A DNA stretch of 64,000 nt, taken from assembly GCF_004010195.1 (NCBI RefSeq), contig NC_057718.1, forward strand, positions 40,938,023 through 41,002,022, given 5' to 3'. The number at the start of each line of letters is the position of its first letter. Within the stretch, counting starts at the first letter, position 1. A program made the position numbers and the translations under genes. Below are positions 1,242 to 63,910 of this stretch, in pieces. The notes beneath the pieces are model-generated. The model saw only the letters and a list, made by a program, of their open reading frames with translations, was not told the origin of the DNA and made no database searches. The stretch comes from Chiloscyllium plagiosum. Its lineage: Eukaryota.

Positions 1242-1370
1242 ATTCCTGATGAAGGACTTTTGCCCAAAACATTGATTTTCTGCTCCTCTGATGCTGACTG
1301 ACCTGCAGTGCTTTTCCAGCACCATTCTAATCTTGACTGTAATCTGCAGCATCTCCAGACCCCACTTCTG
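1242..1370 (+). mobile_element. PLE-derived mini-element with decayed hammerhead motif
   Basis: ATTC-CTGATGA-A-GGAC-TTTT-GCCC-AAAAC (G12 lost), followed by the family 3' region TGCTCCTCTGATGCTG...CAGCATCT..CCCACTTC. Homologous to 3391, 13494 and 54252. Confidence 0.8.
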
Positions 1371-2730: not shown

Positions 2731-3260
2731 CAGCCGGTGTTTCAAACTCATGAATCCTCCATCATGAGCCCCATATGTTGGTTCATCTTGTTAGGCCCCC
2801 TTACTGATTTTTCATTATTTTGTTTTATTCTATTTATAACCTTTGGTTTGGAGTTGTGAACTGTGAGATAAATAGTGGACGTAACGTACTTCAGACAACA
2901 GTAAACAATCATATGACAGATAGGTATTCCTGCCACAGCCAGTCATGATGATGGAAAAAAAGAAAAACAAGTGGAAAGCGGAGGATACTTCAACATTCCC
3001 ATCCTCAGTGATATTGGCACACAACAGGAGTACAAAAGACTACTGTGGGGTTTAGCCAAATGTATAACTCAGCCTCCTCTTGATGTTCCTACCATATAAA
3101 AGCCAATCTGAATCAATCTGTATTTTCTTAAAATAGCTGAGTATATTAAAGACATTAGGCCACAATACCATTCTGGCTGCATTGCTGAAGATTTCCATTG
3201 GTCAATATCAGCTTCACCTCTACCAAGCTGCTTCAGTTATAGTTACAATGCTGGTACATT

Positions 3261-3480
3261 AGGAGAAAGTGAGGACTGCAGATGCTGGAGACCAGAGTTG
3301 AAAACTGTGGTGCTGGAAAAGCGCAGCAGGCCAGGCAGCATCCGAGGAGCAGGAGAATCGACGTTTTGGCCATAAGCCCTTCTTCAGGAATTCCTGAAGA
3401 AGGGCTTATGCCCGAAACGTCGATTCTCCTGCTCCTCGGATGCTGCCTGGCCTGCTGCACTTTTCCAGCACCACACTTTT
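3261..3480. mobile_element. Head-to-head palindromic PLE insertion with TSD
   Basis: Inverted arms of ~90-100 bp centred on GGAA|TTCC (3390/3391). Flanked by CAATGCTGGTA at 3246-3256 and 3481-3491. Confidence 0.9.
3391..3425 (+). ncRNA. Minimal type I hammerhead ribozyme motif, intact core
   Basis: CTGAAGA (3394-3400), extra A, stem II GGGC-TTAT-GCCC, GAAAC, GTC (predicted cleavage after 3421). Palindromic ACGT replaces stem III. Stem I is only ~2 bp. Confidence 0.75.
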
Positions 3481-3751
3481 CAATGCTGGTATGTACCTAT
3501 TATGATCCCAACTGTTGGTGATACTGCATAAGTCTGATCTGAGCAGGAAACCTGGCTTGATCGATCATATTTTGATTTTGCAGTTGGCTAATATAGTGGT
3601 CAGGCAATGAAATATATTCATGTGGGGCTGCAGATACTCATTATCAATAGAACACAAGTTTATTATATAAAAAAACAAATAAACTAATTGCGTGTATGTA
3701 TGTGCGTCAGCTAGAAAGATCTTAACACAAAAATCAAAACAAATTGTTAGA

Positions 3752-5069: not shown

Positions 5070-6190
5070 GAATTAAAGTCAATGCAATAGATGCTATCTA
5101 TATGTACTTTAAGCAAGTGTTTGAGAACGTACCACAGGAAGACTGGTTAGGAAAATCAAGGACCATTGAATAGGAATTACAGTGGGAACTTCATTAAAAC
5201 ATATTGAATAAACAGAAGCAGATTGTGGTAAATGGTTGGTTTCCCGATCGGAGGATGGGAGACAGTGGTGTTCCCAAAGGGTCAGTACTAAAACCACTGT
5301 TTTCAATATAACTTGGATATTGAAATAAAAATTGATATTTCAAATTTTTCCAATGACACCAAAATTGGAGATATCATAATCTGTGGGATTGATTCCAAAC
5401 AACTGCAAAAAAATATAGATTGGGTGCTGAAGTGGAAAATGGACTTTCGTATAAAGAGGTATGAAATATTAACAATAAAACAAACAACTGCAGATTCTGG
5501 AAATCTGAAACAAAACCAGAAATTGCAGGAGAAACTCAACAGCTCTGGACCAAAATGCTAACACTGCTTTCTCTCCACAGATGCTGCCAGACCTGCTGAT
5601 TTTCTCCAGCAATTTCTGTTTTTGAAGTATGAGATGATACACTGGCAGAAGAGATGGGATGGCCAATATGGATCTAATGGCCTAAAGAGAATGGGAAGGG
5701 ACAGCAAAACCTGGAGGTTCATGCATCTAGATTTTTGAAGGTGGTCAGACATGTTGAGAGAGTAGTAAGAAAAGCATATGTCATCTTTGGCTTCATAAAT
5801 ACCGTACGAGCTATTCCGTGCGAAAACATGGAGGCTATTGTTGATCTTTTTAAAACACTGATTCAGCCACAAGTGGAACACTGTATTCCGTTCTGGTCAC
5901 CACTCTTTAAGAAGGATATGAAGATCTATCAGATGATGCAGATGACCAAAATAGTCCCAGTTATGAGGGATATTATCTAAACGATTAGACTGAAGAAACT
6001 GGAGTTTCTCTCCTTAAAACAAAGAAGATTGAGAGGAGGTCTGATAGCAGTGTACAAGATTAAAGCAAGCTTAAGATTGTGAGAGAAAAGAAATGCTTGT
6101 ATTAGCCGATGGTACAGGACACAAAATTAAAATTTGGGCAAGAGATGTGGTGGTGATGTGAGGATGAGCCTTTTTACACAGTAAATGTAA
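5070..6190 (+). mobile_element. CR1 (HER1-like) LINE RT/3' fragment, decayed
   Basis: ISNFSNDTKIG (YADD-region equivalent FADDTK), LIQPQVEHCIPFWSP and LKKLEFLSLKQRRLRGGLI motifs. Confidence 0.85.
5475..5625. mobile_element. Inverted PLE terminal fragments nested in CR1
   Basis: CAAAACCAGAAATTGCAGGAGAAACTCAAC and its reverse complement GCTGATTTTCTCCAGCAATTTCTGTTTTTG flank GGACCAAAATGCTAAC. Confidence 0.7.
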
Positions 6191-8604: not shown

Positions 8605-9562
8605 TTCACAGCTCATCTCCTCCAAGATGATGGCGAAGTAACAGGGCTGAGCCCAGGCCACATCAGCTCTTGTTCTTTTTTGTATCTCTTCTTCTTTTTA
8701 CTTTAGTTCTTTTCCTTTTTTTCTTCTTTTTTATCTTCGGTTTTCTTTTCTCCAAAGTGGTGGGTGAAGGAAGAGTACACTGGCAGTAGCAACAACAATG
8801 CCGGGCCGAGCAAGCCACAGCTCCATCCCAGCCTGAGGTCGCCTGGCAAGCAAGGAACAGGTCCCGGGTTGACTTGCCCAGCCTGGACCCGCAGGCTGAG
8901 CCGAGGCACCAGGCCTGGGCACCTGAAAGAGTGGAAGCAGCGGCAGCAGCATCTAGAGGAGTGTCGAATGGAAAACAGGTTGTATGTAACCCATGCATCC
9001 CCAGGCCCATGGTTCTAGCTTGGTGGTCGTGGGAATGATGGCAGTGAAAGCCTGCAACCAAGACCCTAGAGCTCATTACAAAAGCTCAGAAAACCATAAT
9101 ACCATCATAGGATCACCAAAATCTAAAAACTGAAAGGATTACAGATGCTATAAATCAAAAAAAAGAACTTGCTGGCAAAGCTCAGCAAGTCTGGCAGCAT
9201 CTGTAAAAAGAAATCAGAGTTAACCCTTCTTCAAAACTCTGCTTTCTCTTCACAGATGCTGCCAGACCTGCTGAGCTTTTCCAACAACTTGTGTTTTTGT
9301 TTTTGATTTACAGCATCTGCAATTCTTTCATTTTTTATGAAAACCCAGGAGCCAGTTTCAGAGACTCCAGCCAATGTCAAGCAACAACTGGAAAGCAGTG
9401 GAGTTTGAACAAAAAGAGAGAAAGATGAACTCCATTACAGAAAAACCTTACATTATATTTAGGTTTCAAGATGACGTTGGAGCATGGTGACTCTTTGCAT
9501 ATAACGTGCAAGAAAACACTTTTCACTGTATTTTTATATACATGTGACAATAAATCTAAATC
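8605..9562 (+). mobile_element. Non-coding LINE-tailed retroposon inserted in CR1
   Basis: Starts near CAAGATGATGGCG, then a pyrimidine tract and a GC-rich body. Ends CACTTTTCACTGTA...TACATGTGACAATAAATCTAAATCT (Rex1/L2-like tail from memory). CR1 resumes at ~9563. Confidence 0.5.
9120..9340. mobile_element. Head-to-head palindromic PLE terminal fragment
   Basis: ACAGATGCTATAAATCAAAA...CTCAGCAAGTCTGGCAGCATCTGT is mirrored by ACAGATGCTGCCAGACCTGCTGAG...TTTTGATTTACAGCATCTGC. Confidence 0.8.
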
Positions 9563-12050: not shown

Positions 12051-12175
12051 AGTCATACTGGACTCAAAACAGTAACTCTGTTTCTCTCTCCACTGTGATT
12101 GCCAAACCTGCTGAGTTTCTCCAGCACTTTCTGTTACAGATTTTCAGCTTCTGCACTATTCTGCTTTTATACTTT
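12051..12175 (+). mobile_element. PLE 3' terminal fragment starting inside the hammerhead stem II
   Basis: AGTC-ATACTG-GACT-C-AAAAC, then AACTCTGTTTCTCTCTCCAC...CCTGCTGAGTTTCTCCAGCACTTTCTGTT. Confidence 0.65.
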
Positions 12176-13330: not shown

Positions 13331-13493
13331 ATCTGAAAAGATTGCCACTTAAATGTGATCTGAGTGTGAAGCAGCTGCAGACAATGTGACTTCAGTTATT
13401 CAGACAGATACTTTAGTCCTAAATTAGACAGACAAAGCAAATTGTGATAATAATTTGGGAGTTGATCACAAAATTGACGGCTCAGTAGTTCTT

Positions 13494-13625
13494 ATTTCTG
13501 ATGAAGGGCTTTTGCCTGAAACATTGATTTTCCTGCTCCTTAGATGCTGCCTAATCTGCTGTACCTTTCCAGCACTATTCTAATCTTGAATCTAATCTCC
13601 AGCATCTGCAGTATTCACTTTCACC
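13494..13625 (+). mobile_element. PLE-derived mini-element with hammerhead motif and TSD
   Basis: ATTT-CTGATGA-A-GGGC-TTTT-GCCT-GAAAC-ATT, ending CACTTTCACC. TAGTTCT at 13486-13492 and 13626-13632. Confidence 0.8.
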
Positions 13626-14256
13626 TAGTTCTAATTATTTGCCTGCTAATAAATTATGGTTGTGTGATCTGGGTATAGTCTATTACTTGTTTATGTGCAT
13701 TAAATGTTATGTTTTGAACTACTATTGAGCAGCAATGGGAATGAGTTTCATATGAACTGTCCAATATCTTTCACAAATGAGCAAATGAATTGACAGAGCC
13801 AATTACAACACTGATTCAATAGATTGTAATGTTTACGATTTTCAGTACAACTGACACAGGCATTATAACATATCAGAATGCCAACCCCTCCAGAGAATAG
13901 AATCTAGCTGCCCATGTGTGATTTCAAGATGTGACATAGAAATAATGGAGAATGCTGGTAACTTCATTGTTATTTTTACAGATAAATTTAGCCCACTATT
14001 TTGAAATGTTTAACCAAATGAAAAAATGTGTGCCTCAATCGATATCACAGTCCCATGCATTATTTGCAGCATCTGTTTTGCTGTTAAGGTTTGATTCCAT
14101 ATAACCACCACATCAAATATATGAACAGAGGAATATCATCTTCTGGTTATTAGCATGAAACTGCTCTTCTTGATGTTAGAATGCATTTGAATACTTGAGG
14201 GTTTGGATCTTATTGCCAGTATAAACAGTAGCACACACAGTCTTTCCTTATTTTCT

Positions 14257-14500
14257 AGGAGAAAGTGAGGACTGCAGATGCTGGAGATCAGAGTCAAGAG
14301 TGTGATGCTGGAAAAACACAGCAGGTCAGGCAGCATCTGAGGAGCAGGAGAATCGACGTTTCAAGCATAAGCCCTTCATCAGGAATGAGGCTGATAAGCC
14401 TCACTCCTGATGAAGTGCTTATGCCCAAAACGCTGATTCTCCTGTTCCTCGAATGCTGCCTGACCTGCTGTGTTTTTCCAGCTCCACACTCTCGACTCTG
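14257..14500. mobile_element. Head-to-head palindromic PLE insertion
   Basis: Arms mirror about GAGGCT-GATA-AGCCTC (~14387-14402). The left arm has the full terminus AGGAGAAAGTGAGG. The right arm is 3'-truncated at CTCGACTCTG. Confidence 0.9.
14351..14386 (-). ncRNA. Minimal hammerhead ribozyme motif, intact core
   Basis: Minus strand ATTC-CTGATGA-A-GGGC-TTAT-GCTT-GAAAC-GTC-GATT. Stem II is retained through G-U pairs. Confidence 0.65.
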
Positions 14501-16989: not shown

Positions 16990-19780
16990 AGGTGAGAAGC
17001 AGTGAATCTGAATTACTTCAAGATGCTGTTCAGGATTGTAGGAGAACTGACCAGTATAAGAAGTGGCATCACTGTACCAATCAAGAGTGAAGATGGTAGG
17101 CTACTACTGACAGATGAGGAATAGGAGCAAAATGGATGGAACACTTTCAGGAGGTGGTCAATCAACCTATTCTCCACCCAATATTTGAGTTTGATGACCA
17201 CACCAGGCCTCAGCAACTGACCATCAACCTTGGAAAACTGATCAGATCAGAGGTCCATAGAGCCATCTAAGGCCTGAAGAACACTAAAATAGCTGATATC
17301 TTTGCGATACCTGGCATAATTGAAATACCTAGGATCTTTGAGATACTTAGCAAGGTCTTCAGCACTGCACTCCTCGACAAATTGAAAGTAGACATTGGTG
17401 ATAACCTTTGTGGTAAACAGGCAGGTTTCCAGGCTAACAAATCATTCTGTGAGCAGATGGTTACATTCAGCAATGCAGAGTCTACTGTATCACAAACCAC
17501 TGGTTAGCAACTTCAATGATTTCAAGTGGGATTTCAATAGCACTCACCAACAGTCAAATGATACATTGTAAGACAACACAGCATCCCAGAGTGGTATAGT
17601 AACCTTTTCTGAGCTTTATGTATGAAACCAGCTTCTGCATCAAGACAAGCTCAGGCACCACAGATTCCATCAACATCATTACAGGAGTACAGCAAAGTGA
17701 CCTACCCTCCCCATTCCTTTTGTCTTTATTATTGATTTTCTCATGAAGAAGATGATAGTCAATGCAGACTTTGATATCATGTTGCATTGGCACCAGTAGA
17801 CAGCTGTGAAAAGACAAACACAATGATGTCCGAAAAGCAACAAGACCTCCCATTGCCATTGGACAACAAAACTTCAAGAATGCTAATCACATCCTGTGTT
17901 GAAGAAGCGAAATCTCCAGGGAGGATGATGTAGGGATTGATGTCCACACAAAAATTTAGAGGGCAGCATCAGTCTTCTAGCGACCCTACACAGAGAGGGA
18001 ATCCAATACCATCAAAACAGCCATGAAGCTGCAACTTCATGTGTGCATTGTAGTACCAATTGCAATCAATATCAGTGAGGCAAGGACAAGAATGACAAAG
18101 GTGTAACATACTGGGATGTCTTGCAACATGTATTTGGAAAGGCAAGGACTGATTAGGGATAGTCTTCATGGTTTTGTGCATGGGAAATCATGTCTAATGG
18201 ACTAGATTGAATTTTTTGAAGAAGTAACTAAGAGGATTGATGAGGACAGAGCAGTGGACAGAGCAGTGGATCTATATGGACTTCAGTAAGGTGTTCGACA
18301 AGGCTCTTCATGGTAGACTGGTTAGCAAGGTAAGATCTCATGGAATATTGCCATTTGAATACAGAACTGGCTCAAAGGCAGAAGACTGAGGGTAGTGGTG
18401 GAGTGTTGTCTTTCGGACTGGTGGCCTGTGACCAGTGGAATGCCACAAGGATTAGTGCTGCGTCCACTGTTTTTTGGCATTTATATAAATGATTTGGATA
18501 TGAACATAGGAGATATAATAAGTAAGTTTACAGATAACACCAAATTTGGAGGTGTAGTGACCAACAAAAAAGGTTACCTCAGAGTACAATGGGATCTTGA
18601 TGAGATGGATTAATGGGCTGAGATAATTTAGATAAATGTGAGGTGTTACATTTTGGAAAGGCAAATCAAAGCAGTACTTATACATGTAATTAGATTAGAT
18701 TAGATTAGATTACTTAAGGTGCTGGGGTGTGTTGCTGAACAAAGAGACCTTGGAGTGCAGATTCCTGGTTCCTTGAAAGTGGAGTCGCAGGTAGATAGGA
18801 TAGTGAAGAAGATATTTACTTTGCTTTCCTTTATTGGTCAGAGCACTGAGTGTAGGAGTTGGGAGGTCATGTTGCAGCTGTACAGGACATTGGTTAGGCC
18901 ACTGGAATATTGCATGCAATTCTGGTCTCCCTCCTATAGGAAAGATATCGTGAAACTTCAAAGGGTTCAGATTTACCACTGTGAAGCCAGCATTGGAGGA
19001 TTTGAACTAAAGCGAGAGATTGAATAGGCTGGAGCTGTTTTTCCTGGAGCGTTGGAGGTTGAGGAGTAAATTATGAGGTTTATAAAATTATGAGGGGCAT
19101 GGATAGGGTAAATAAACAAGGTCTTTACCCTAGGGTGGGAGAGTCCAGAACAAGAGGGCATAGGTTTACGGTGAGAGTGGAAAAATCTAAAAGGGCAACT
19201 TTTTCACGCAGGGTGTGGTATGTGCATGGAATGAGCTGCAGAGAAAGTGGTGGAGGCTGGTACAATTCAAGTATTTGAAAGGCACCTAGATGGGTATATG
19301 AGTAGGAAGCATTTAGAGGGATATGGGCCAAGTGCTGGCAAATGGAACTAGATTAAGTTAAGATATCTGGTTGGCATGGACGAGTTAGACCAAAGTGTCT
19401 GTTTCTGTGCTGTACATCTCTATGGCAATGACTGTATGTTGCCAACATAAGATCTTAGGTGTCACTTGGAGAGAAAACATGACCAATGAAGAACTGCTAC
19501 ACAGGACTTTTCAGAAGCACCTCAAGGACATTGTGACAGAGGAATGTCTGGTCTGTCAGGACCATTTCATCTCTTGGATGAGCGCTAAAGTGTTGTCGTT
19601 GTATGGACACCACCAGTTTAGAAAAGAAGATGGGTACAGCTAAAAAAGGTGTAGTGCAGTGCATTTAAAGGCAGGACACCACCTGAGCTGGAACAAAAGA
19701 GATTGCAATGGACCCAGGCCAGTGGCAGAGTCTTGTCTATTTTCCTGTATGGCACCAGAGTGGAACTAAAGATAATTAAG
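16990..19780 (+). mobile_element. RTE-clade LINE relic, split by a CR1 insertion
   Basis: PIKSEDGRLLLTDEE..WMEHFQEVVNQP, KQAGFQANKSFCEQMVTF, NFNDFKWDFNSTH and TGVQQSDLPSPFLF. Resumes after 19435 with CCQHKILGVTWRENMTNEELL. Confidence 0.75.
18128..19435 (+). mobile_element. CR1 (HER1-like) LINE, 5'-truncated
   Basis: VTSGMPQGLVLRPLFFGIYINDLD..ISKFTDNTKFGG and LYRTLVRPLEYCMQFWSP, with a 3' UTR ending CTGTACATCTCTATG. Contains a (TAGAT)n run at 18690-18713. Confidence 0.92.
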
Positions 19781-28529: not shown

Positions 28530-30435
28530 AGAGCAACACAGTACAGAAACAGGCCCTTCTACCCACCAATACAGTACTGACATAGGATGCCTTTCTAAAC
28601 TAAAAAGCTTTCACCTCTACGCGGTCCATAACCCTCTATTCCCTGTTTCTTCATATCTCTGTCAAGATGCTTCTTAAATATTGCTATTGTATCTGTCTCC
28701 ACCATCTCCTCTTGGCAGCACATTCCAGGCACTTACCACTGTCTGTGTGAAAAACCTGCCTTTCACATCCCCTTTAAACTTACCCCATTTTACCTTAAAC
28801 CAATGTCCCTTAGTAATTGACATTTCTGCTCTGGAAAAAGACTCTGAAAATACATTCTACTTATGCCTGTCATAATTGTGTAAACTTCTATCATAATACC
28901 AATCATACTTGGACATTGAAGTGAAAACAAACCAATTTTTTCCAATCGCTCCTCCAAACTCGGTTACATCCTGGTAAACTGTTTCTGTATCCTTTCAAAA
29001 GCCTCCACATCTTCTTGTTGTGTGATAACCAGAATTGTACAAAATATTCTAAATGTGGTGTAACTAAAGTCCTAACAGCAGCAACATGACTTGCCAATTT
29101 TTGTATGCTATGTCCTGACCAATGAAGGCAAGCATACCATATGCCTTCTTGACCACCTTATCGACTTGTGTTGCCACATTCAGGAAACTGTAGAACTATA
29201 TGCCTAGATCTCTCAAAATGTTGATGCTACTAAGGGTTCTGCCATTTACTGTGTACTTTCCTACTGACTACACCTCCCAAAATGCCTCACTTCGCATTTG
29301 TTTGTTCTATCTGCTCAAGTCTCCAACCTATTTGTATCGTATAGAATCCTCTAGCAATTCCTCTCATTATCTGTTGTTCCCGCAATCTTTGTGACATCTG
29401 CAAACTTACTAATCAGGCCATCTGCATTCTCCTCCAAATCATTTATATATATTACAAACAGCTGGGGTCCCAGCACTGATCCCTGTGGAACACCACTGGT
29501 CACAGATCTCCAATAAAAAAAACACTACCGCCACTACTCTATGTCTTCAATGACTAAGCCAGTTCTGCATGCATCTTACCAGTTACCGTAGATCCCATGT
29601 GAAATCACCTTTTGTAACAGCCTGCCATGAAGGACCTTGTCAAAGGCCTTGCTAACATCTATCACCCTGCCCTCATCAATCATTTTTGTCACTTCCTCAA
29701 AAACTCAATCATGGTCAGGAGACACAATTTTCGCCACACAAAGCCATTCTGCCTCACGCTAATAAGTCCATATTTTTCCAGATAAGAATAAATCCTATCC
29801 CCAAGAATCTTCCCCTATAATTTCCCTACCACTGACCTAAGGCTCACCAGCCTGTAAGTTCCCAGATTATTCCTGTTTCCCTTCTTAAACAAAGGAACAA
29901 CTGACTATTCTTGAGTCCTCTGGGTCCTTTCCTGTGACTAATGAGGATGCAAAGATTTTGTGCAAGGCCCCAGTAATTTCTTCACCTGTCTCCCTCAGCA
30001 TTCTGGGATGGATCCTGTCAGGTCCTGGGGACTAGTCTACCTTAATCCTTTTTAAAGTACCCAACACCTGTTTTTTATATTAACATGCTCTAGAATATCA
30101 ATGTATCACTCCCGAGACTCACTATCCACCATGTCCTTCTCAAAGACCTCACCCATTTTCTCTGGCTCCACCAATACGTTCCCTCCTTCTTCCTTGAATG
30201 GAGATACCTTTTCCCTAGTTACCCCTCGCTCCTTATATATGTATAAAATACCTTGGGATTTTCCTTCATTCTGTTTGCCAAAGACATTTCATGGTCTCTA
30301 TAGCTCTCCTCACTCCTTGTGCCTACTTTTTCTTTTTGACTAATCTCTCAATTTTTCTTGTTGGCCAAGGTTCCTGAATCTTACCATCCTTATCATTTAT
30401 CTTCACAGAAATATTCTGGTCCTGAACTGTAATCA
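28530..30435 (-). mobile_element. CR1 LINE 3' two-thirds (nested in the + CR1); 5' part at 33078-34440
   Basis: 3' tail CACAGTACAGAAACAGGCCCTTC, and RTLVTPHLEYFVQFW in ORF 28903..29097. Confidence 0.88.
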
Positions 30436-30868
30436 TAGAGTTATAGAATCATAGCAATGTACAGCATGAAATAGACCCTTCGGTCCAACTCGTCCATGCC
30501 GACCAGATATCCCAACCCAATCTAGTCCCACCTGCCAGCACCTGGCCAATACCCCTCCAAACCCTTCTTATTCATCCAGATGCCTTTTAAATGTTGCAAT
30601 TGTACTAGCCTCGACCACTTCCTCTGGCAGCTCATTCCAGATATGTATCACCCTCTGAGTGAAAATGTTGCCTCTTAGGTTTCTTTTATATCTTTCCCCT
30701 CTCATCCTAAACCTATGCCCTCTAGATCTGGACTCCTCCCACCCCAGGGAAAATACTTTGTCTACTTATCCTATACATGCCCATCATAATTTTATAAACC
30801 TCTATGAGGTCACCCCTCAGCCTCCGATGCTTCTGGGAAAACAGCCCTAGCCTATTCAACCTCTCCCT
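30436..30868 (-). mobile_element. Young HER1-like CR1 3' end
   Basis: Close match to 44175-44600 (CCATGCCGACCAGATATCCCAACCCAATCTAGTCCCACCTGCCAGCA). Confidence 0.9.
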
Positions 30869-31696
30869 AGAAATTGGATTGAAGTATATTTACATCGGAA
30901 ATCCTCTTCTACTTCCAGTAAAGAAAAGTAAATTGCTTGTCTTCAGGTCTGGTACTTTCAATATATTATGTCAAAAATGGACAAGTTTTGGTTTATGAGA
31001 ATGAAGGCTTGCTTGTGGAAGATGTCTTTTGGATGGGCACAAACAAAGCATGATGGGAGAAAGCCCAACTTGTCAAATCCTTATTTCCCTGTGCATCTGA
31101 ATTAATTAAAACATGGGAAAATCAAGTTGCATTGTTTTTGACTTTGATTCCCATAGATTCCCAAATACATATCAGATAAGGCAGTTAAGAAAGGGGGGGA
31201 CAGGCAAAATTTCATGTGAATGACCATAATGAAAAAGGACTAATTATCTAGGCTATCAAATATAAAGTCAATACTTATCTGGCTTCTGACTGTATCATGT
31301 CATCTAGCCATTAGCTTATTCTATGTAAATTATAATTTACTGTGGTCTCAATGAGTCTTTGCTGAAGTTTGGGGATTAGACTCAAAGTTGCTGCAGAGTA
31401 ATACAGTATAATATTACAAAAAACATAACACCCTTTTAAAAGGGACGCGGATAAATGTTTGACATTGAAATATTTACAAGAGAATGAGAAAAGGCCAACC
31501 CCATGGAGCTAAGATGATAGATCTTATAAACAATTAGCACAGTTGCATTGGGTGAAAAAGACTGCTCACTACACTGAAGGACAACTAGGAATGAGCACTG
31601 ACATGCTGGCCATGTCAGTGATATCCAAATCCTGAAAATGAATAATCACCTCCTGTGTGACTGTTTTCATTATGATAAGTGTATGTTTACCACTTC

Positions 31697-32270
31697 GAGT
31701 CACAGAGATGGACAACACAGAAAGAGACCCTGCGGTCCAACCCGCTAACCAGATATCCTACATTAATCTAGTCCTATTTGCCAGCATTTGGCCCATATCC
31801 CTTTTAAACTCTTCCTATTCATATACCCATCTAGATGCCTTTTATATGTTGTAATTGTACCAGCCTCCATTACTTCCTCTGGTAGCTCTTTCCATACGCG
31901 CACCACCCTTTTTGTGAAAACGTTGTGCCTTAGGTCTTTTAATTTATCCCCTCTCACCTTAAACCCATGCCCTCTAGTTCTGGACTCACCCACCCAGGGA
32001 AAATACCTTGTCTATTTACCCTATCAATGCCCCTCATGATTTTATAAATCTCTAAGGTCACCCCTCAAGCCTCTGACACTCCAGGGAAAACAGTTCCAGC
32101 CTATCCAGCTTCTCTGTATAGTTCAAACCTCCCAACCCCGGCAACATCCTTGTAAATCTTCTCTGAACCGTTTCACAGCACCCTTCCAAAGGAGGGAGGC
32201 CATAATTGGGCACAATATTCCAAAAGTGGCCCACCTAATGTTCTGTACAGCCACAACATGACCTACCTCT
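31697..32270 (-). mobile_element. HER1-like CR1 3' end
   Basis: ORF 31763..31993(-) GESRTRGHGFKVRG..VVRVWKELPEEVMEAGTI. Confidence 0.9.
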
Positions 32271-33077
32271 CACCCCTATACTTATACAATTGATAGTTTT
32301 AATTCTCAATATGGAAAACGCCTATGCTGAGCAAAGATCCTGGCTATCAAAGCACACTCAGCTATTTGTCTTTACTGCAACACCTTTATAAAACAAACAC
32401 CCAGATAAATATGTGAGTTACAATCACTTGTTTTTATTTGACTAATCTTTTGTACTTGACAGACTACATTCATACGTGAGACATGTAGAATTAGTGAAAA
32501 TCATTAGAAATGCATACAGCTCTCTTTCCACAAGCTGCAAATTAGCTTCAGAATCAGGACATTTATGTTGGTTTGTAAATTAAGAGTTTAAACCATTTAC
32601 CAAATGAAGGCAAACTTTCTGATCTTTTCAATTCTATCAATAAGAATAAATATCCTGCTATTTGCTGCAATTTTACATGCATGGAATAGGAAAATCAATA
32701 ATCCTTCATCTTCAGGTTAAAAGTAGTACAGGTAACTTTAGACTGATAATTTAACTTGGGCATTAAGAGAAACTGATCCACAAAAACAATACATTCACAT
32801 TCTTTCATAAAGTTACTGATAGAAAATGAGAAATTAATTTAACTTAATTTACAAGTTCACAAATTAAGAAACTTAAACCTTGAAGCACTGAATATTCATC
32901 AAGTCCAATTTATTTTAAAAACTATGAGAGAAAGAGAAAAAGAGAGTAGTGAAAACAGAGGCACCAAGAAAAGGGGCTGAATAGGGCACTGTGGGTACGT
33001 AACAGGGAAACCAGGGGTGGCCTGCCCAAGGGGAGTAAAGGAGGTATGCTGCATAGCTAATTGATGAAGCTTGGTCA

Positions 33078-43566: not shown

Positions 43567-44710
43567 ACTCTGGGAAACAATACAGCCTGCAGTGGAGCAG
43601 ATCAGATGGAAAACATATCCCTTTCACCTGCATTCAGTAGTTTAAATGTTCAGCAGTCACTTTGACAACTATTCAGAAGAATTGAATATGTAAATATAGG
43701 GATTGGCTGGCAAACGGGTGGAGAACGTTAGGATGCCAAATGAATGAGAGGTTGGGTGGCATATGGGTCCAAGTTGTAGAATGCCAGGTGGGTTGGGGTT
43801 TAGGCTGCCAGACAGGTGAGGGGTCAGCATGCCAGCTATGTCAATTAGTTTTTAGAGTAAGTCTAGGTGTGTATTTGCAGTATGTGTCAGGTCCAGTGAG
43901 GTTGGGCCAGGATGGGATACTGGACCAGGTGGGTGGGTTTGGCATGAGTAGAGAAATGTATAGTTCAGTGGACAGGTTAGGGGAAGGGGAGAGGAGGGAG
44001 TTGAACAAGGAGATCATATTGGTCTGGTGGGATCAGATTGGGTTGACAGGTTGTGGTCAAAGTGATTGTCAGATCGTATAGAGTTGGGGCTGTGGGAGTG
44101 CGACTGGGGACACATCCGAAGGTGGAATGTGTGGTGCAGGAGGAGAATAGTGTTAAATTGAGGTTTCGGTTTAATAGTTATAGAGTCATAGAGATGTACA
44201 GCACCCTAACAGATCCTTTGGTCCAACTTGTCCATGCCGACCAGATATCCCAACCCAATCTAGTCCCACCTGCCAGCACCTGGCCCATATCTGTCCAAAC
44301 CCTTCCTATTCATATACCCATCCAGATGCTTTTAAATGTTGCAATTGTACTAGCCTCCACCACTTCCTCTGGCAGCTCATTCCATACACGTACCACCCTC
44401 TGCGTGAAAATGTTGTCCCTTGGGTCTCTTTTATATCTTTCCCTTCTCATCTAAACCTATGCCCTCTCATTCTGGACTCACTCACCCGAGGGAAAAGACC
44501 TTGTCTATTTACCCTATCCATGCCCCTCATGACCTCTACAAGGTCACTCCTCAGCCTCTGAGGCTCCAGGGAAAACAGCCCTAGCCGATTCAACCACTCC
44601 CTATAGCTCAAAACTTCCAAATCTTTTCTAAACCCTTTCAAGTTTCACAACATCTTTCTGATAGGAAGGAGACCAGAACTGCATGCAACATTCCAAATGT
44701 GGCTTAACCA

Positions 44711-45056
44711 ATTAGATTAGATTAGATTAGATTAGATTAGATTAGATTAGATTAGATTAGACTACTTACAGTGTGGAAACAGGCCCTTCGGCCCCACAAG
44801 TCCACACCGACCCGCCGAAGCGTAACCCACCCATACCCCTACATTTACCCCTTTACCTAACACTACGGGCAATTTAGCATGGCCAATTCACCTGACTTGC
44901 ACATCTTTGGACTGTGGGAGGAAACCGGAGCCCCCGGAGGAAACCCACGCAGACACGGGGAGAACGTGCAAACTCCACACAGTCAGTCGCCTGAGTCGGG
45001 AATTGAACCCGGGTCTCTGGCGCTGCGAGGCAGCAGTGCTAACCACTGTGCCACCG
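44711..45056 (-). mobile_element. Young HE1-type SINE nested in CR1
   Basis: (ATTAG)10 tail at 44711-44760 and a CpG-rich body. Host CR1 reads ACCAAT|...|AATGTCCTG (short AAT duplication). Confidence 0.95.
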
Positions 45057-45974
45057 AATGTCCTGTAAAGCTGCAACATGACCTCCCAACTCCTGTACTC
45101 AACACTCTGACCAATAAAGGAAAGCATGCCAAATGTCTTCTTCATTATCCTATCTATCAGCGACTATACTTTCAAGGAGCTATGAACCTGCACTCCATAG
45201 TCTCTTTGTTCAGCAACACTCCCTAGGACCTTACCATTAAGTGTATAAGTCATGCTAAGATTTGCTTTCCTAAAATGCAGCACCTCACATTTATCTAAAT
45301 TAAATTCCATCTGCCACTCCCTAGCCCATTGGCCCATCTGATCAAGGTCCCGTAGTACTCTGAGGTAACCTTCTTCGCTGTCCACTACACCTCCAATTTT
45401 AATGTCAGCTGCAAACTTACTAACTGTACCTCTTAAGCTCACATCCAAATCATTTGTATTAATGACTAAAAGTAATGGACCCAGCACCGATCCTTGTGGC
45501 ATTCCATTGGCCACAGGCCTCCAGTCTGAAAAACAACCCTCCACAACCACCACCCTGTCTTCTACCTTTGAGCCAGTTCTGTATGCAAATGGATAGTTCT
45601 CCCTGTATTCCATGAAATCTAACCTTGCTAATCAGTCTCCCATGGGGAACCTTTTTGAATGCCTTGCTGAAGTCCATATAGATCACATCTACTACTCTGC
45701 CCTCATCAATCCTCTTTATTACTTCCTCAAAAACTCAATCAAGTTTGAGAACATGATTTCCCATGTTCAAAGTCATGTTGACTATCTGTAATAAGTCCTT
45801 GCCTTTCCAAATGCATGTACATCCTGTTCCTCAGGATTCCCTCCAACAACTTGTCCACCACCTACATCAGGCTCACTGGTCTATAGCTCCCTGGTTTGTC
45901 CTTACCAACTTTCTTAAGTAGTAGCCACCCTCCAGTCTTCCGGCACCTCAACTGTGATTATTGATGATACAAAT

Positions 45975-52075: not shown

Positions 52076-52318
52076 GATCTCTGTCTGCTGACTGGTTATC
52101 AATGTTTCCCTCCACATTTTCATCCAAAATGTACATTCATTTGTTAATAAAGCCTTTTTGTATCGTGGAGGACTTTATTGAAAGAGAAATGTCTAAACGG
52201 TGAAGGCCAGACGAGAGGTCTGTTTCCTGTTATGCGTGGCTAATCTGTGTAAGTGTACAAACTTCTTTTCTGCATGTTCTGTCCACAAGTTTGAAAAGAC
52301 TGACTTGTGTACAGCCTG

Positions 52319-52408
52319 AAAAATGTGTTGCTGGAAAAGCGCAGCAGGTCAGGCAGCATCCAAGGAGCAGGAGAATCGCCGTTTCGGGCATAAGCCCTTC
52401 TTCAGGAA
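52319..52408 (-). mobile_element. 90-bp hammerhead mini-element with 13-bp TSD
   Basis: TGTGTACAGCCTG at 52306-52318 and 52409-52421. Minus strand TTC-CTGAAGA-A-GGGC-TTAT-GCCC-GAAAC-GGC (cleavage triplet mutated). Confidence 0.9.
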
Positions 52409-53992
52409 TGTGTACAGCCTGCATAGTTTGACAGCCACAAGTCTAGAGGAGACATTGGTGACATATTATTCCACCTTTAATCACTTGCTGAAACTTTCAG
52501 AGTACTGATGTTGGATTTATCTCTAAATCATATCTTCATCTCTCCCCTTTCTCTGCTGGCAACTTCTCCTCCATTGAACATCTCACCTTATGTCAATTTT
52601 CATTTAATTAAAATCTCAACTAAAATCTTTTTCTCCCCCATCTCATTGTTTTCCTGAATAACCCCCCACTGATATACAAATCCCAGGAGACTCAGGAAAC
52701 TGTCAGGACTGGAGAAAAAGGTAAAGAGAGACATACAATAGGTACAAAAAGAACAAAACAACCGAGGTTCTGGTGAAGTATAAAGAGTGCAAGGGGAGCT
52801 CAAGATAGCAATTGGAACAGCAAAGAGGGGACATAAAAGAAAACACCAGTGGGCAAGATTATGGGGAATTCCAAGATATTCCACAAATATATCCAGGGGA
52901 AGAGAATAACCACAGAGAGTCAGACACATGAGGGGCAATCTGTGCATGAAGCCGTAGGATATTAGTGGAGTGTTAAATGAGTATGCCACATCGATCTGTA
53001 CTGAGGAGGAGGTCGCAAGTACAAAATTTGAAAAGATGGACTGTGAAGTTCTTGAGCAGATTGATATTGGAAGTGAGGAATTATTGGAGGTTTTGGCAGA
53101 TTTAAATTCTCACATCTGGATAGGTTGTATTCCAGACTGTTGTGAGATGATGAAAGAAATTACAGGGCTCCTGACCCAAATTTCTAACTCATCCCTGGCT
53201 ACAGTGGAGGTGCCAGAAGATTGGAGGACAGATAATGTGCTTCCACTTTACAAGAAGAATGGTAGAGATAAACCAAGGAACTATAGGTCAGTGCGCTTCA
53301 CATCAGTAATAGGAAGCTATCAGAGAAAGTAGCAAAGGATAAAATTAATCTCCATTTAGAGAAGTAGGGTTTATGGTCAGAAATAGTCAGCATGGTGTTT
53401 TTAGAGGGAGGGCATGTCTAACAAATCTAGTTGAAGTTTTCAAGGAAGTGTTCAAGTGTTTGGATGAGCATAGGCCAGTTGATGTCATTTCAGAAAGACC
53501 TTTGACAAGGTCCCACATGGAAAATTGATTTTAAAAATGTAAAGCTCATAACATCCAGGGTAAGTTGTCAGGTTGGATCTAAAATTAGCTTAGTTACAGG
53601 AGACAGAAGGTGTTGGTTGAAGGCTGTTTGTGTGATTGGAGGCCAGTGTCCAGTGACATTCCACAGCGACCAGTGCTGGATCCCTTAATGTTTATGATGT
53701 TCATAAATAATGTAGATGAGAATATAAGGGAGAATGATAAGCAAATTTACGGATGAAACAAGGATTAGCCGGGTGGCTGACTATAAAATGGAAGGTGTTA
53801 GGTAACAGAAGGATATATATTGGTCAGATGGACAGATCAATGGCAGATGGAATTTGATGTTGATAAATGTGAAGTGATGTTCCTTCTTCCAAAGTGCAAG
53901 ACATGGGAGTAGTCAGTGCATGACAGCACGCCAGGAAACTCAGAGGGATCTTGGAGTGTTTGTCTACAGATCCCTGAAGGTGGCAAAACAGG

Positions 53993-54652
53993 TGTGACAA
54001 TTCTGTGGCTTTAAGAGGTATGCTTTGTCCTGGTTTCTTTTCAAGAGAGATTGCAGGACAGGTAGTGAGCAGTCTATGAGAAGATAAACAACTTGTGAAG
54101 CCTTGAGATTTTTTTAAGTGGGAAGAATAGAGGTAGCCTAGATGGGTGTGGTCAAGCTCCCACACACAGAACCAGCATTCCGCAGTTCTGTTGGGGTCTT
54201 GAAGACATGGAAGGTATTTTTTTCCCTGTCAGCTGTTACTATTTTGGAACACATTCCTGACGAAGGGCTTATGTCAGAAATGTTGACTCTCCTGCTCCTC
54301 GGATGCTGCCTGACCTGCTGTGCTTTTCCAGCATCACACTTTTTGATTCTGATTGCCAGCATCTGCAGTCCTCAGTTTCTCCTACTATATTGGAACAGTT
54401 AATTAATAACAGTTACTGTATCTAATGTTCTGTCAAGGTTTCCAATAGAGTTTTTATTCCAATTTCGTCTTTTATTTATTGACGTTTAACTATAGTGGAT
54501 GTATAAGTGTGTTTTTCTTTAAATCCGGTAGTTTGACCAATCAAATTGCATCTGGGACACCTTGCCTTATATTTACCTTGAAAATAAGAAAAAAAGTTAG
54601 GGTCGAGACTATCTTTTGAATGTTTTGAAGGAGTTTGGTGTGGTCCATAACA
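53993..54652 (+). mobile_element. Solo LTR related to 23959-24569
   Basis: TGTGACAA...TTGAATGTTTTGAAGGAGTTTGGTGTGGTCCATAACA. Flanks CAGG/AAGG form a 4-bp TSD with one mismatch. Interrupts CR1. Confidence 0.8.
54252..54382 (+). mobile_element. 131-bp hammerhead mini-element with 15-bp TSD, nested in the LTR
   Basis: CATTC-CTGACGA-A-GGGC-TTAT-GTCA-GAAATGTT...CAGTTTCTCC. TACTATTTTGGAACA (54237-54251) / TACTATATTGGAACA (54383-54397). Confidence 0.88.
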
Positions 54653-57778: not shown

Positions 57779-57887
57779 CTCCATATATACCTATGAGAAA
57801 GTGAGGACTGCAGATACTGGAGATCAGAGCTGAAAAATTTGTTGCTGGAAAAGTGCAGCAGGGCAGGCAGCATCCAAGGAGAAGGAG

Positions 57888-57923
57888 AATCGACGTTTCG
57901 GGCATAAGCTCTTCTTCAGGAAT
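57888..57923 (-). ncRNA. Minimal hammerhead ribozyme motif, intact core
   Basis: Minus strand ATTC-CTGAAGA-A-GAGC-TTAT-GCCC-GAAAC-GTC-GATT, with one A-C mismatch in stem II. Confidence 0.65.
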
Positions 57924-58325
57924 GAGGAAGGTATGCCAAGCAGGCTAAGATAAAAGGTAGGGAGGAGGGACTTGGGGGAGGGGCATTAGGAATGCGATAG
58001 GTGGAAGGAGGTTAAGGTGAAGGTGATAGGCTGGAGAGGGGCTGGGGGCAGAGAGATCGGGAAGATGATTGCAGGTCAAGAAGGCGGTGCTGAGTCCGTG
58101 GGTTGGGACTGAGATAAGGTGGGGGGAGGGGAAATGAGGAAGCTGGAGAAATCTCTCAGCACCGCCTTCTTGACCTGCAATCTTCTTCCCGACCTCTCCG
58201 CCCCCACCCCCTCTCCGGCCTATCACCCTCACTTTAACCTCCTTCCACCTATCGCATTCCCAACACCCCTCACCCAAGTCCCTCCTCCCTACCTTTTATC
58301 TTAGCCTGCTTGGCATACCATCCTC

Positions 58326-58361
58326 ATTCCTGAAGAAGAGCTTATGCCCGAAACGTCGATT
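58326..58361 (+). ncRNA. Minimal hammerhead ribozyme motif, intact core
   Basis: ATTC-CTGAAGA(58330-58336)-A-GAGC-TTAT-GCCC-GAAAC-GTC(58355-58357)-GATT, identical to the opposite arm. Confidence 0.65.
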
Positions 58362-58554
58362 CTCCTGCTCCTTGGATGCTGCCTGACTGCTGCGCTTTTC
58401 CAGCAACACATTTTTCAGCTCCATATATACCTATCTTTTGCCTAGCCACGGATTCTATCTGGCAACTCAATAATGGATTGTCCATGGACTGCTGGAGAAA
58501 GGTGTGATATGTCATATATAATTTTCACAAGTTCAGACCTTAACATTTTTAAAA

Positions 58555-63032: not shown

Positions 63033-63910
63033 TGAAATAAAAACAGAAATTGCTGGAGAAACTCAGCAAGCTTGGCAGTATCTGTGGAGAGAAAGCGGAG
63101 TTAACATTTTAGGTCCAGTGATCCTTCTTTAGAATTGACTGTAGCTAGGAAAAGTTGATATTGAAGAGAGGGTAAGGGGAGGTGAGAGAGAGCAAACAGT
63201 AAGTGGAGATAGATTGCAGAGAGATAGCCAGGTAAATAGACAAGGTCTTTTCCCCAGGGTGGAGCAGTCCAAAACTAACGTGCATAAGTTTAAAGTGAGA
63301 GGGGAAAGATTTAAAAAGGACCTAAGGGGCAACTTTTTCATGCAGAAGGCAGTGTGTGCATGGAATGAGCTGCCAGAGGAAGTGGTGGTGGCTCATACAA
63401 TTATAACATTTAAAAGACATCTGGATCGGTATATGAATAGAAAGGGTTTAGAGGGACTTGGACCAAATGCTGTCAAATGGGACTAGTTTTATCTAGGATA
63501 TCTGCTCAGCATGGATGGGTTGGACTAAAGGGTCTGTTTCCCTGCTATACAGCTCTATAACTTCATGACTAACAGCAGTTGGGCAGACAAAGGAATGGGG
63601 AAAGGTTAGCCTGGGAGAATCAAGCGCTGCTAATGGGGACCATATAACTGACAACGGGTAGATTGTTGTGGCAGCTCATGTGTGTGGAGGTGTGTGTGAA
63701 GACATAAAAGAAAGTACTCAGACCCTAAAATTATTGAACATGATATTGAATCCATAAGGCTGCAGTGTCCCCAAGCGAAAAATGAGATCCTGTTCTTCCA
63801 GCTTGCACTGAGCTTCGCTGGAGAACTGCAGCATGCCTGAGACAGAGATGTTGGCCAGGGAACATGGTGGTGTATTGAAGTGGCAGGCAACTGAAGGCTC
63901 AGGATCAGTA
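63033..63910 (-). mobile_element. PLE 3' end: GIY-YIG C-terminus, 3' UTR and decayed hammerhead; split by CR1
   Basis: 63906-63718 translates DPEPSVACHFNTPPCSLANISVSGMLQFSSEAQCKLEEQDLIFRLGTLQPYGFNIMFNNFRV*. Minus strand CTAAAGA-A-GGATC-ACTG-GACCT-AAAAT-GTT-AACT at ~63132-63098. Confidence 0.85.
63228..63570 (+). mobile_element. HER1-like CR1 3' end nested in the PLE 3' UTR
   Basis: ORF 63214..63486 VNRQGLFPRVEQSKT..HKFKVRGERFKKDLRGNFF. Confidence 0.9.

Follow-up and report, generated by a model that had tools for sequence, protein, structure and literature searches.

The question raised by this locus was why short hammerhead-bearing insertions in the window (the whole 64-kb stretch of DNA analysed here) begin only a few nucleotides upstream of the catalytic core. 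Positions in the element were numbered from the C of CTGA (hammerhead C3) as 0, with the predicted cut after +27. The four insertions named in the earlier note, at 1242, 13494, 52409 (minus strand) and 54252, started at -4, -4, -4/-3 and -5/-4, respectively, and the near-core starts claimed for them were borne out. The tail-less pLTR stub at 52319..52409 (-) had its 5' end at -4/-3, where the base at 52409 was also the edge of the TSD. Its hammerhead core (52405-52378) had a cleavage triplet mutated to GGC and its 13-bp TSD lay at 52306-52318 on the left and at 52409-52421 on the right, the right copy overlapping the -4 base. The tailed stub at 54252..54382 (+) started at -5/-4 (C+ATTCC), carried a core at 54257-54284 (+) decayed at CpG sites and was bounded by a 15-bp TSD with one mismatch (54237-54251 and 54383-54397). 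Another tailed stub at 13494..13625 (+) started at -4 within a 7-bp TSD (13486-13492 and 13626-13632), while an older tailed stub at 1242..1367 (+), also starting at -4, was without a clear TSD. The first bases of the element recurred as short copies on both sides of this older stub, just past it (1385-1400) and just before it (1230-1237), and the TSD was blurred by these short copies. All four stubs carried changes in GAAACGTC or stem II. The measured lengths of the short elements (91-132 bp, against 90-135 bp claimed) and the TSDs of 7, 13 and 15 bp at three of the four insertions agreed with the earlier description.

Three head-to-head pairs were also present. The pair at 3260-3480 consisted of a tailed arm at 3260..3391 (-) and a tail-less arm at 3390..3480 (+) which overlapped by AT, within an 11-bp TSD (3246-3256 and 3481-3491). 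Both arms started at -4, and the palindrome centre at 3390/3391 therefore did fall at the common point, as had been noted. The pair at 14256..14490, with the tail on its minus arm, was an exception to -4 in that its arms started at about -9 to -11. The pair at 57795..58419 had a tailed minus arm (57795-58154), a plus arm (58155-58419) and a 15-bp TSD (57780-57794 and 58420-58434). Its long arms reached more than 170 nt upstream of the core and carried the 3' UTR and the ORF end, which links the stubs to a full element. Overall, six of the ten arms in the window started at -4/-5.

Judged from their sequence, the stubs are the pLTR module (minimal hammerhead, body and optional tail) of a predicted Neptune-type PLE of about 3.7 kb. 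Following the tail outward led to an ORF with a likely ATG at about +165, and the same module recurred about 160 nt after the ORF stop, which gives the pLTR arrangement. At one locus (L188) the module was present at both ends, with about 3.7 kb and an assembly gap between them; no gap-free full-length copy was found among 15 extended loci. The natural frames of loci L186, L263 and L182 contained the RT motifs QTKG.AMG and YIDD together with IYCI..LYIGETG. A first Pfam scan matched none of five fragments at E 0.01, and the weak Pfam matches obtained with RVT_1 (E = 0.0025 and 0.0063) and GIY-YIG (E = 0.035) were all under the curated cut-offs. In L182, as in other copies, a C-x4-C-xx-C linker preceded the GIY-YIG motif. 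A CX2-5CxxC linker before GIY-YIG is given as a feature of the Neptune clade, common to Nematis, in the accessible part of PMC8557442, and by its linker the element is assigned, from its predicted protein, to the Neptune type of endonuclease-positive PLEs. In protein comparisons, with 5 hits from 463 candidates, the best matches were to unnamed proteins from Chiloscyllium punctatum (83%) and from Rhincodon typus, which makes a carpet shark the likely host. In one copy (L038, upstream of 3893, minus strand), a 19-codon stretch was triplicated inside the endonuclease frame. Just one of the two arms had the tail in 46 of the 50 head-to-head pairs, and the 3' ends in the blind sample described below formed two peaks, at +84-89 and +124-127. 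For the hammerhead core and stem II, each fixed column was kept in 77-88 of 88 long copies, and the ribozyme is a predicted minimal type I hammerhead of the kind described in the accessible part of PMC4209133. An Rfam scan gave no hammerhead match and only hairpin-driven miRNA matches below gathering scores.

The distribution of 5' ends was measured in a blind sample of 140 10-kb stretches (1.36 Mb without N), in which 196 of 266 arms passed an 84% identity filter and 26 of the 196 were censored by gaps or reference ends. The 5' breaks were called against 19 natural subfamily references (13 earlier), since starts from single-reference BLAST are misleading where subfamilies diverge at -5. At -5..-3 there were 34 breaks per 252 nt at risk compared to 43 per 5133 in the flanks (+30..+11 and -12..-50), a 16-fold enrichment (Poisson P = 5e-29), and 32 of these breaks were left once two fold-back artefacts had been removed. 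The break hazard per nt was about 0.007 at +30..+11 and 0.019 at +10..+6, then 0.037 and 0.058, rose to 0.135 at -3..-5 and fell to 0.058, 0.025 and, from -12 to -100, 0.002-0.014. While 90 of the 196 arms started at -8..+5, 42 ran at least 30 nt further upstream. The 5' ends are thus a skewed pile-up and not a single point: the one shared breakpoint of the earlier note stood as a strong peak at -5..-3 in a breakpoint histogram relative to CTGA that was far from smooth, but the spread around it was skewed, and the four window arms that do not fit had been omitted. From the 196 arms in 1.36 Mb, roughly half a million arms can be extrapolated genome-wide.

The enrichment at -5..-3 was 13.6-fold in solo arms and 20-fold in inverted arms. 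The peak coordinate was the same for tailed arms (16 breaks per 42 at risk) and tail-less arms (18 per 58) although their copying starts lie 40 nt apart, so that the pile-up is not set by copy length. The peak was kept in the young group alone (26 breaks per 58 at risk), and 12 of 17 solo copies of the blind sample with credible TSDs started at -8..0 after five rows with doubtful TSDs were dropped. Two further sets were selected solely by their sequence from +8 on. Judged by eye, about half of these copies broke at +10..-10 and one of each 30 at about -21 to -24, while all others ran past -40 or into a gap. In four public runs, which may include the source reads of the assembly and do not count as independent support, the commonest 5' loose ends were -4 and -3, with counts among the rows listed of 13 and 12 contigs, 7 and 6, 1 and 6, and 26 and 20 reads, respectively; the last of these runs also held 36 near-identical reads at +7.

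Composite insertions, found by targeted searches with ORF-start DNA, consisted of a pLTR, a tail and a variable ORF-start stretch followed by another pLTR stub. Where a TSD was visible, a single one enclosed the entire composite (e.g. L097). In the order of copying, a first pass would have begun at +85 or +125 and run to about -4, and after a jump into the ORF a second pass would have gone on to the 5' end once more. After 3 of 30 rows were dropped as duplicate or self-tandem, 27 junctions lay within -45..+45; jumps into ORF sequence left the pLTR at -8..-1 in 24 of the 27, and 16 were placeable at exactly -4. The junctions mostly showed 1-4 nt of microhomology and the donor positions in the ORF were scattered. 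The second pass got as far as +5 in 11 of the 19 composites, and in these the stops of the two passes could be compared. All 8 composites with a first-pass stop near -4 had their second-pass stop at -8..+5, and first-pass stops at -73, -87 and -117 were followed by second-pass stops at -65, -87 and -112 (3 of 3; Fisher P = 0.006), with only these three far cases available, from targeted searches. The two parts were also slightly more alike within an insertion than between insertions (1.7 vs 2.4 differences, P = 0.047). Stops that are paired within insertions are better explained by the end of the template molecule than by a sequence-determined pause, although the three far cases could also stem from a template that was circular or tandem. 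In three composites (L093, L100 and L106) the same ORF-to-pLTR junction occurred twice or was re-entered by 4-7 nt, as could result from several jumps along a single RNA or from a template that was circular. At three head-to-head junctions (L030:2402-2414, L052:1825-1835 and L119:1721-1731) the cDNA end GAA was apparently paired with TTC a few bases back, which, as read from the junction letters, appears to be a snap-back signature.

Taken together, run-off at an RNA end, counting a start site and a nuclease-protected end as one, is the probable origin of the pile-up. For the narrower reading, in which the 5' ends pile up at A(-4) by run-off from RNA that likely begins there at a start site, the chances appear about even. 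Priming would take place within the 5' pLTR of an uncleaved RNA, at +85 or +125, and the enzyme would reach the RNA end after 90-130 nt. The cDNA could then join the target, leaving a solo stub with a TSD, or join a second cDNA or fold back, giving a head-to-head pair; otherwise the enzyme could jump elsewhere on the element RNA and resume copying, with a composite as the outcome. The breaks would be spread towards +10 by end trimming and microhomology, and long copies would derive from RNAs or pLTR copies reaching further 5'. The RNA end itself would be a Pol II start at an initiator-like YY-A-TTCC, which is the least certain step.

Regarding the template, the lack of a peak at +28 shows that the copied RNA was uncleaved, in agreement with the anole PLE as described in the accessible part of PMC11167929. 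The ribozyme core was retained, contrary to its loss on self-cleavage, as the earlier note had pointed out. Regarding the start site, 85 of the 88 long copies, from different subfamilies, had pyrimidines at -6 and -5 and an A at -4. The TCATTCC / YY-A-TTCC context of A(-4) is taken here to be initiator-like, a weak match in a 3' UTR that is pyrimidine-rich throughout. ORF-leading pLTRs ran past -10 in 4 of 15 uncensored cases, which indicates that not all templates start at -4. An extra junction G was present at 8 of 16 breaks at -4 (P = 0.036 vs flanks) but also at 19 of 40 breaks at 0..+30, and four of six linkers at -4 ended in G; an untemplated G at the 5' junction is a mark of capped full-length ends in the retrotransposons L1 and SVA (PMC4859970). 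One raw RNA run (X20) showed no start pile-up, though its fragmented poly(A) library makes it a poor test; the run covers both strands and looks like host transcripts containing copies. In published work, as far as the accessible text goes, the anole PLE in vitro used two internal start sites on uncleaved RNA, with product length set by the RNA 5' end (PMC11167929), and Drosophila Penelope has a promoter and start site inside its pLTR (PMC2377424). The Penelope start lies 46 bp before a 75-bp intron ending at helix I (PMC2377424, PMC4209133), hence about 120 nt upstream of the ribozyme, which counts against a start at the ribozyme edge. Two other origins of an end at -4 were ruled out: a splice acceptor, as there is no AG there and the AG of the young group after a pyrimidine tract lies at about -29, and ribozyme cleavage at the CUC before -4, where stems I and III cannot pair by eye.

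Another hammerhead-bearing repeat family, the second, was found at L025:3754-3838 (-), L183:861 (+) and about 50 other loci; it differs in core and stem sequence and has a (CA)n-rich upstream region. It is likely another PLE, and at L183 a YIGET-type endonuclease frame adjoins the copy. Among 53 copies with a core, 32 started at -14..+2, one at -26 and 20 past -47; the pile-up had the same shape, with a 5' edge near the A of TCC-A-CA at -8. At L123:1385 (-), a second-family stub was joined directly to first-family ORF-start sequence, possibly a cross-family template jump to judge from this junction.

A doubtful alternative to the start site keeps the same run-off and has the RNA end arise by 5'-to-3' nuclease trimming down to the folded, protein-bound ribozyme. 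It would place the peak exactly where it is, at the 5' edge of stem I, in which A(-4) is the last paired base (with U+31), and it suits both the lack of a clear cap signal at -4 and the scattered ORF donor positions, as expected for RNA fragments. The anole PLE protein, according to the accessible part of PMC11167929, binds the hammerhead RNA region and assists its folding. The second family fits less well in that its edge (about -8 to -10) lies outside its three-pair stem I, although a bulged extension of stem I to -6 is possible there.

It is unlikely that the template was a longer RNA on which copying paused at the 5' arm of the ribozyme (e.g. in a dimeric hammerhead), or that the endonuclease nicked the cDNA at ATT -4..-2. 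A preference of the anole PLE endonuclease for 5'-ATT-3', a motif present here, is stated in the accessible part of PMC11167929, and about a fifth of the arms (42/196) did read far past the site; the edge of the second family, however, is without ATT. A stop set by sequence predicts independent passes, yet the composite stops were paired. Folding showed no stable structure upstream of -4 (z = -0.49 for -91..+262), and stem I, with only 4 bp, would already be unwound. The RT stop or template switch at stem I offered in the earlier note was therefore right in that jumps cluster there and the RNA was uncleaved, but as a fixed stop it fails on the paired far stops.

The other proposal of that note, a ribozyme-headed, SINE- or retrozyme-like retroposon replicating from its own short copies, is very unlikely. 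The great abundance of the arms (266 in 1.36 Mb, many with TSDs) would suit such a family, and retrozymes derive from PLE pLTRs and leave monomers, according to the accessible part of bioRxiv 10.64898/2026.07.22.740005. Nonetheless, short copies, which should have formed their own clade with diagnostic mutations, were scattered among the long ones. In a tree of 81 short and 38 long blind-sample arms (columns +5..+82, 77 columns, which could miss small secondary lineages), short/long labels changed 28 times compared to 30.3 +/- 2.3 when shuffled, with 64 of 300 shuffles at or below this value. No diagnostic column was fixed in the short copies, short copies occurred in every subfamily, and the nearest long and nearest short neighbours were equally close (median 0.026). 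Adding the targeted loci gave 60 changes vs 69.5 shuffled (4/300 shuffles), a slight clustering in favour of a separate family which is attributed to the subfamily-biased targeted searches. No unit tandems were seen, as only 2 of 266 arms had a head-to-tail neighbour and neither was a unit tandem; only 3 of 175 arms had an A-rich tail after the end. The stubs contained no tRNA, Rfam gave no match to a Pol III head (tRNA, 7SL, 5S), and none of nine B box matches fell inside a stub. In addition, stub ends did not coincide with the cleavage site, where 7 breaks at +26..+30 compared to 4.3 expected (5 vs 1.7 for solo arms) were not significant and from which the main peak is 32 nt upstream. A few contigs from runs guessed to be RNA join +89 or +125 back to about -3; such joins would suit circular RNA but were indistinguishable from genomic tandems. 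Finally, ordinary random 5' truncation combined with reader selection or alignment artefacts can practically be dismissed: subfamilies do diverge just upstream of -4, so that a wrong reference could fake a break, and the earlier note did leave out four of ten window arms, but the peak persisted with 19 subfamily references and in the young group alone. It was also present among junctions resolved by their TSD or donor, and its coordinate did not differ between the two start sites.

The stubs and their element can be compared with known systems, each as covered in the accessible parts of the sources cited. The order of RT, Cys linker and C-terminal GIY-YIG followed by the pLTR, with a tail on one arm, resembles Neptune PLEs (PMC8557442, PMC3846280). 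Truncated endonuclease-positive insertions in those accounts consist of a pLTR, an inverted pLTR and a 30-40 bp tail, and Neptune-clade insertions have TSDs similar to those of 7-15 bp found here; unlike the variable 5' truncation described there, the present copies have a preferred end at the ribozyme edge and mapped jumps from it (PMC8557442, PMC3846280). The ribozyme shares with metazoan PLE hammerheads the minimal type I core, the bulged base before stem II and the palindromic 15.2-16.2 positions, and those hammerheads likewise occur mostly solo or as close opposite-strand pairs thought to be truncated PLEs (PMC4209133). In contrast to that work, the element ends were mapped here relative to the ribozyme, and sharks are not among the cases named in its accessible text. 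Anolis PAc Poseidon likewise has a tail defined by two internal start sites of RT, and an uncleaved RNA template; it belongs to another clade, and its ORF starts inside the hammerhead, whereas the ORF here starts about 165 nt downstream (PMC11167929). Its 5' ends in vivo are not given in the accessible text. Non-LTR retrozymes are similarly non-coding, with a type I hammerhead and kinship to PLE pLTRs, and occur as tandem units that are cut by the ribozyme and circularised (PMC7761336, bioRxiv 10.64898/2026.07.22.740005). The present stubs differ from them in being solo or head-to-head, in ending 32 nt from the cut site and in not making up a separate lineage.

Earlier publications already describe minimal hammerheads, both solo and inverted, as debris of PLEs, and they also cover the tail and internal initiation. 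No report of a preferred 5' end at the PLE hammerhead edge with paired jumps was found in a search of mostly freely available main text, and the ribozyme-edge pile-up is considered real and new, as a feature of an element whose kind is known and not as a new family. The arms form a fossil record that maps the likely RNA start, uncleaved copying and the jump sites, and they yield single-base predictions, namely an RNA 5' end at -4 and RT starts near +87 and +125. How PLEs rebuild pLTRs and tandems, and the role of the hammerhead, are stated as open in the accessible parts of PMC2377424 and PMC7761336.

A tentative possibility is a strong-stop step, in which priming just downstream of a hammerhead at the extreme 5' end of the capped mRNA is followed by run-off and an obligatory jump to the 3' pLTR, from where the ORF is copied. 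In retroviruses, minus-strand strong-stop DNA arises by priming near the RNA 5' end, run-off and a jump along the template. Stub formation would work in the same way, differing in that it is target-primed, uses no tRNA primer and has the stub itself integrated; PLEs are not known to have an RNase H. If this step were true, stubs, hairpins and composites, in their hundreds of thousands, would be failed or misdirected jumps, and the jump would supply the mechanism, missing so far, by which pseudo-LTRs and partial tandems are regenerated.

Other repeats were also observed in the window. An older, third hammerhead-like family was present at 63035-63121, 5545-5624, 9122-9342, 12057-12135, 3815 and 4773, the copy at 9122-9342 being a head-to-head pair. 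At 230-458, a unit of about 112 bp was duplicated in tandem nearly perfectly, with 99% identity. Decayed repeats, presumably CR1/L2-type LINE pieces by their resemblance, occupied the interval between the stubs at 52319 and 54252 (52430-54000) and much of the rest of the window (18126-19424, 29383-32282 and 44175-45876).
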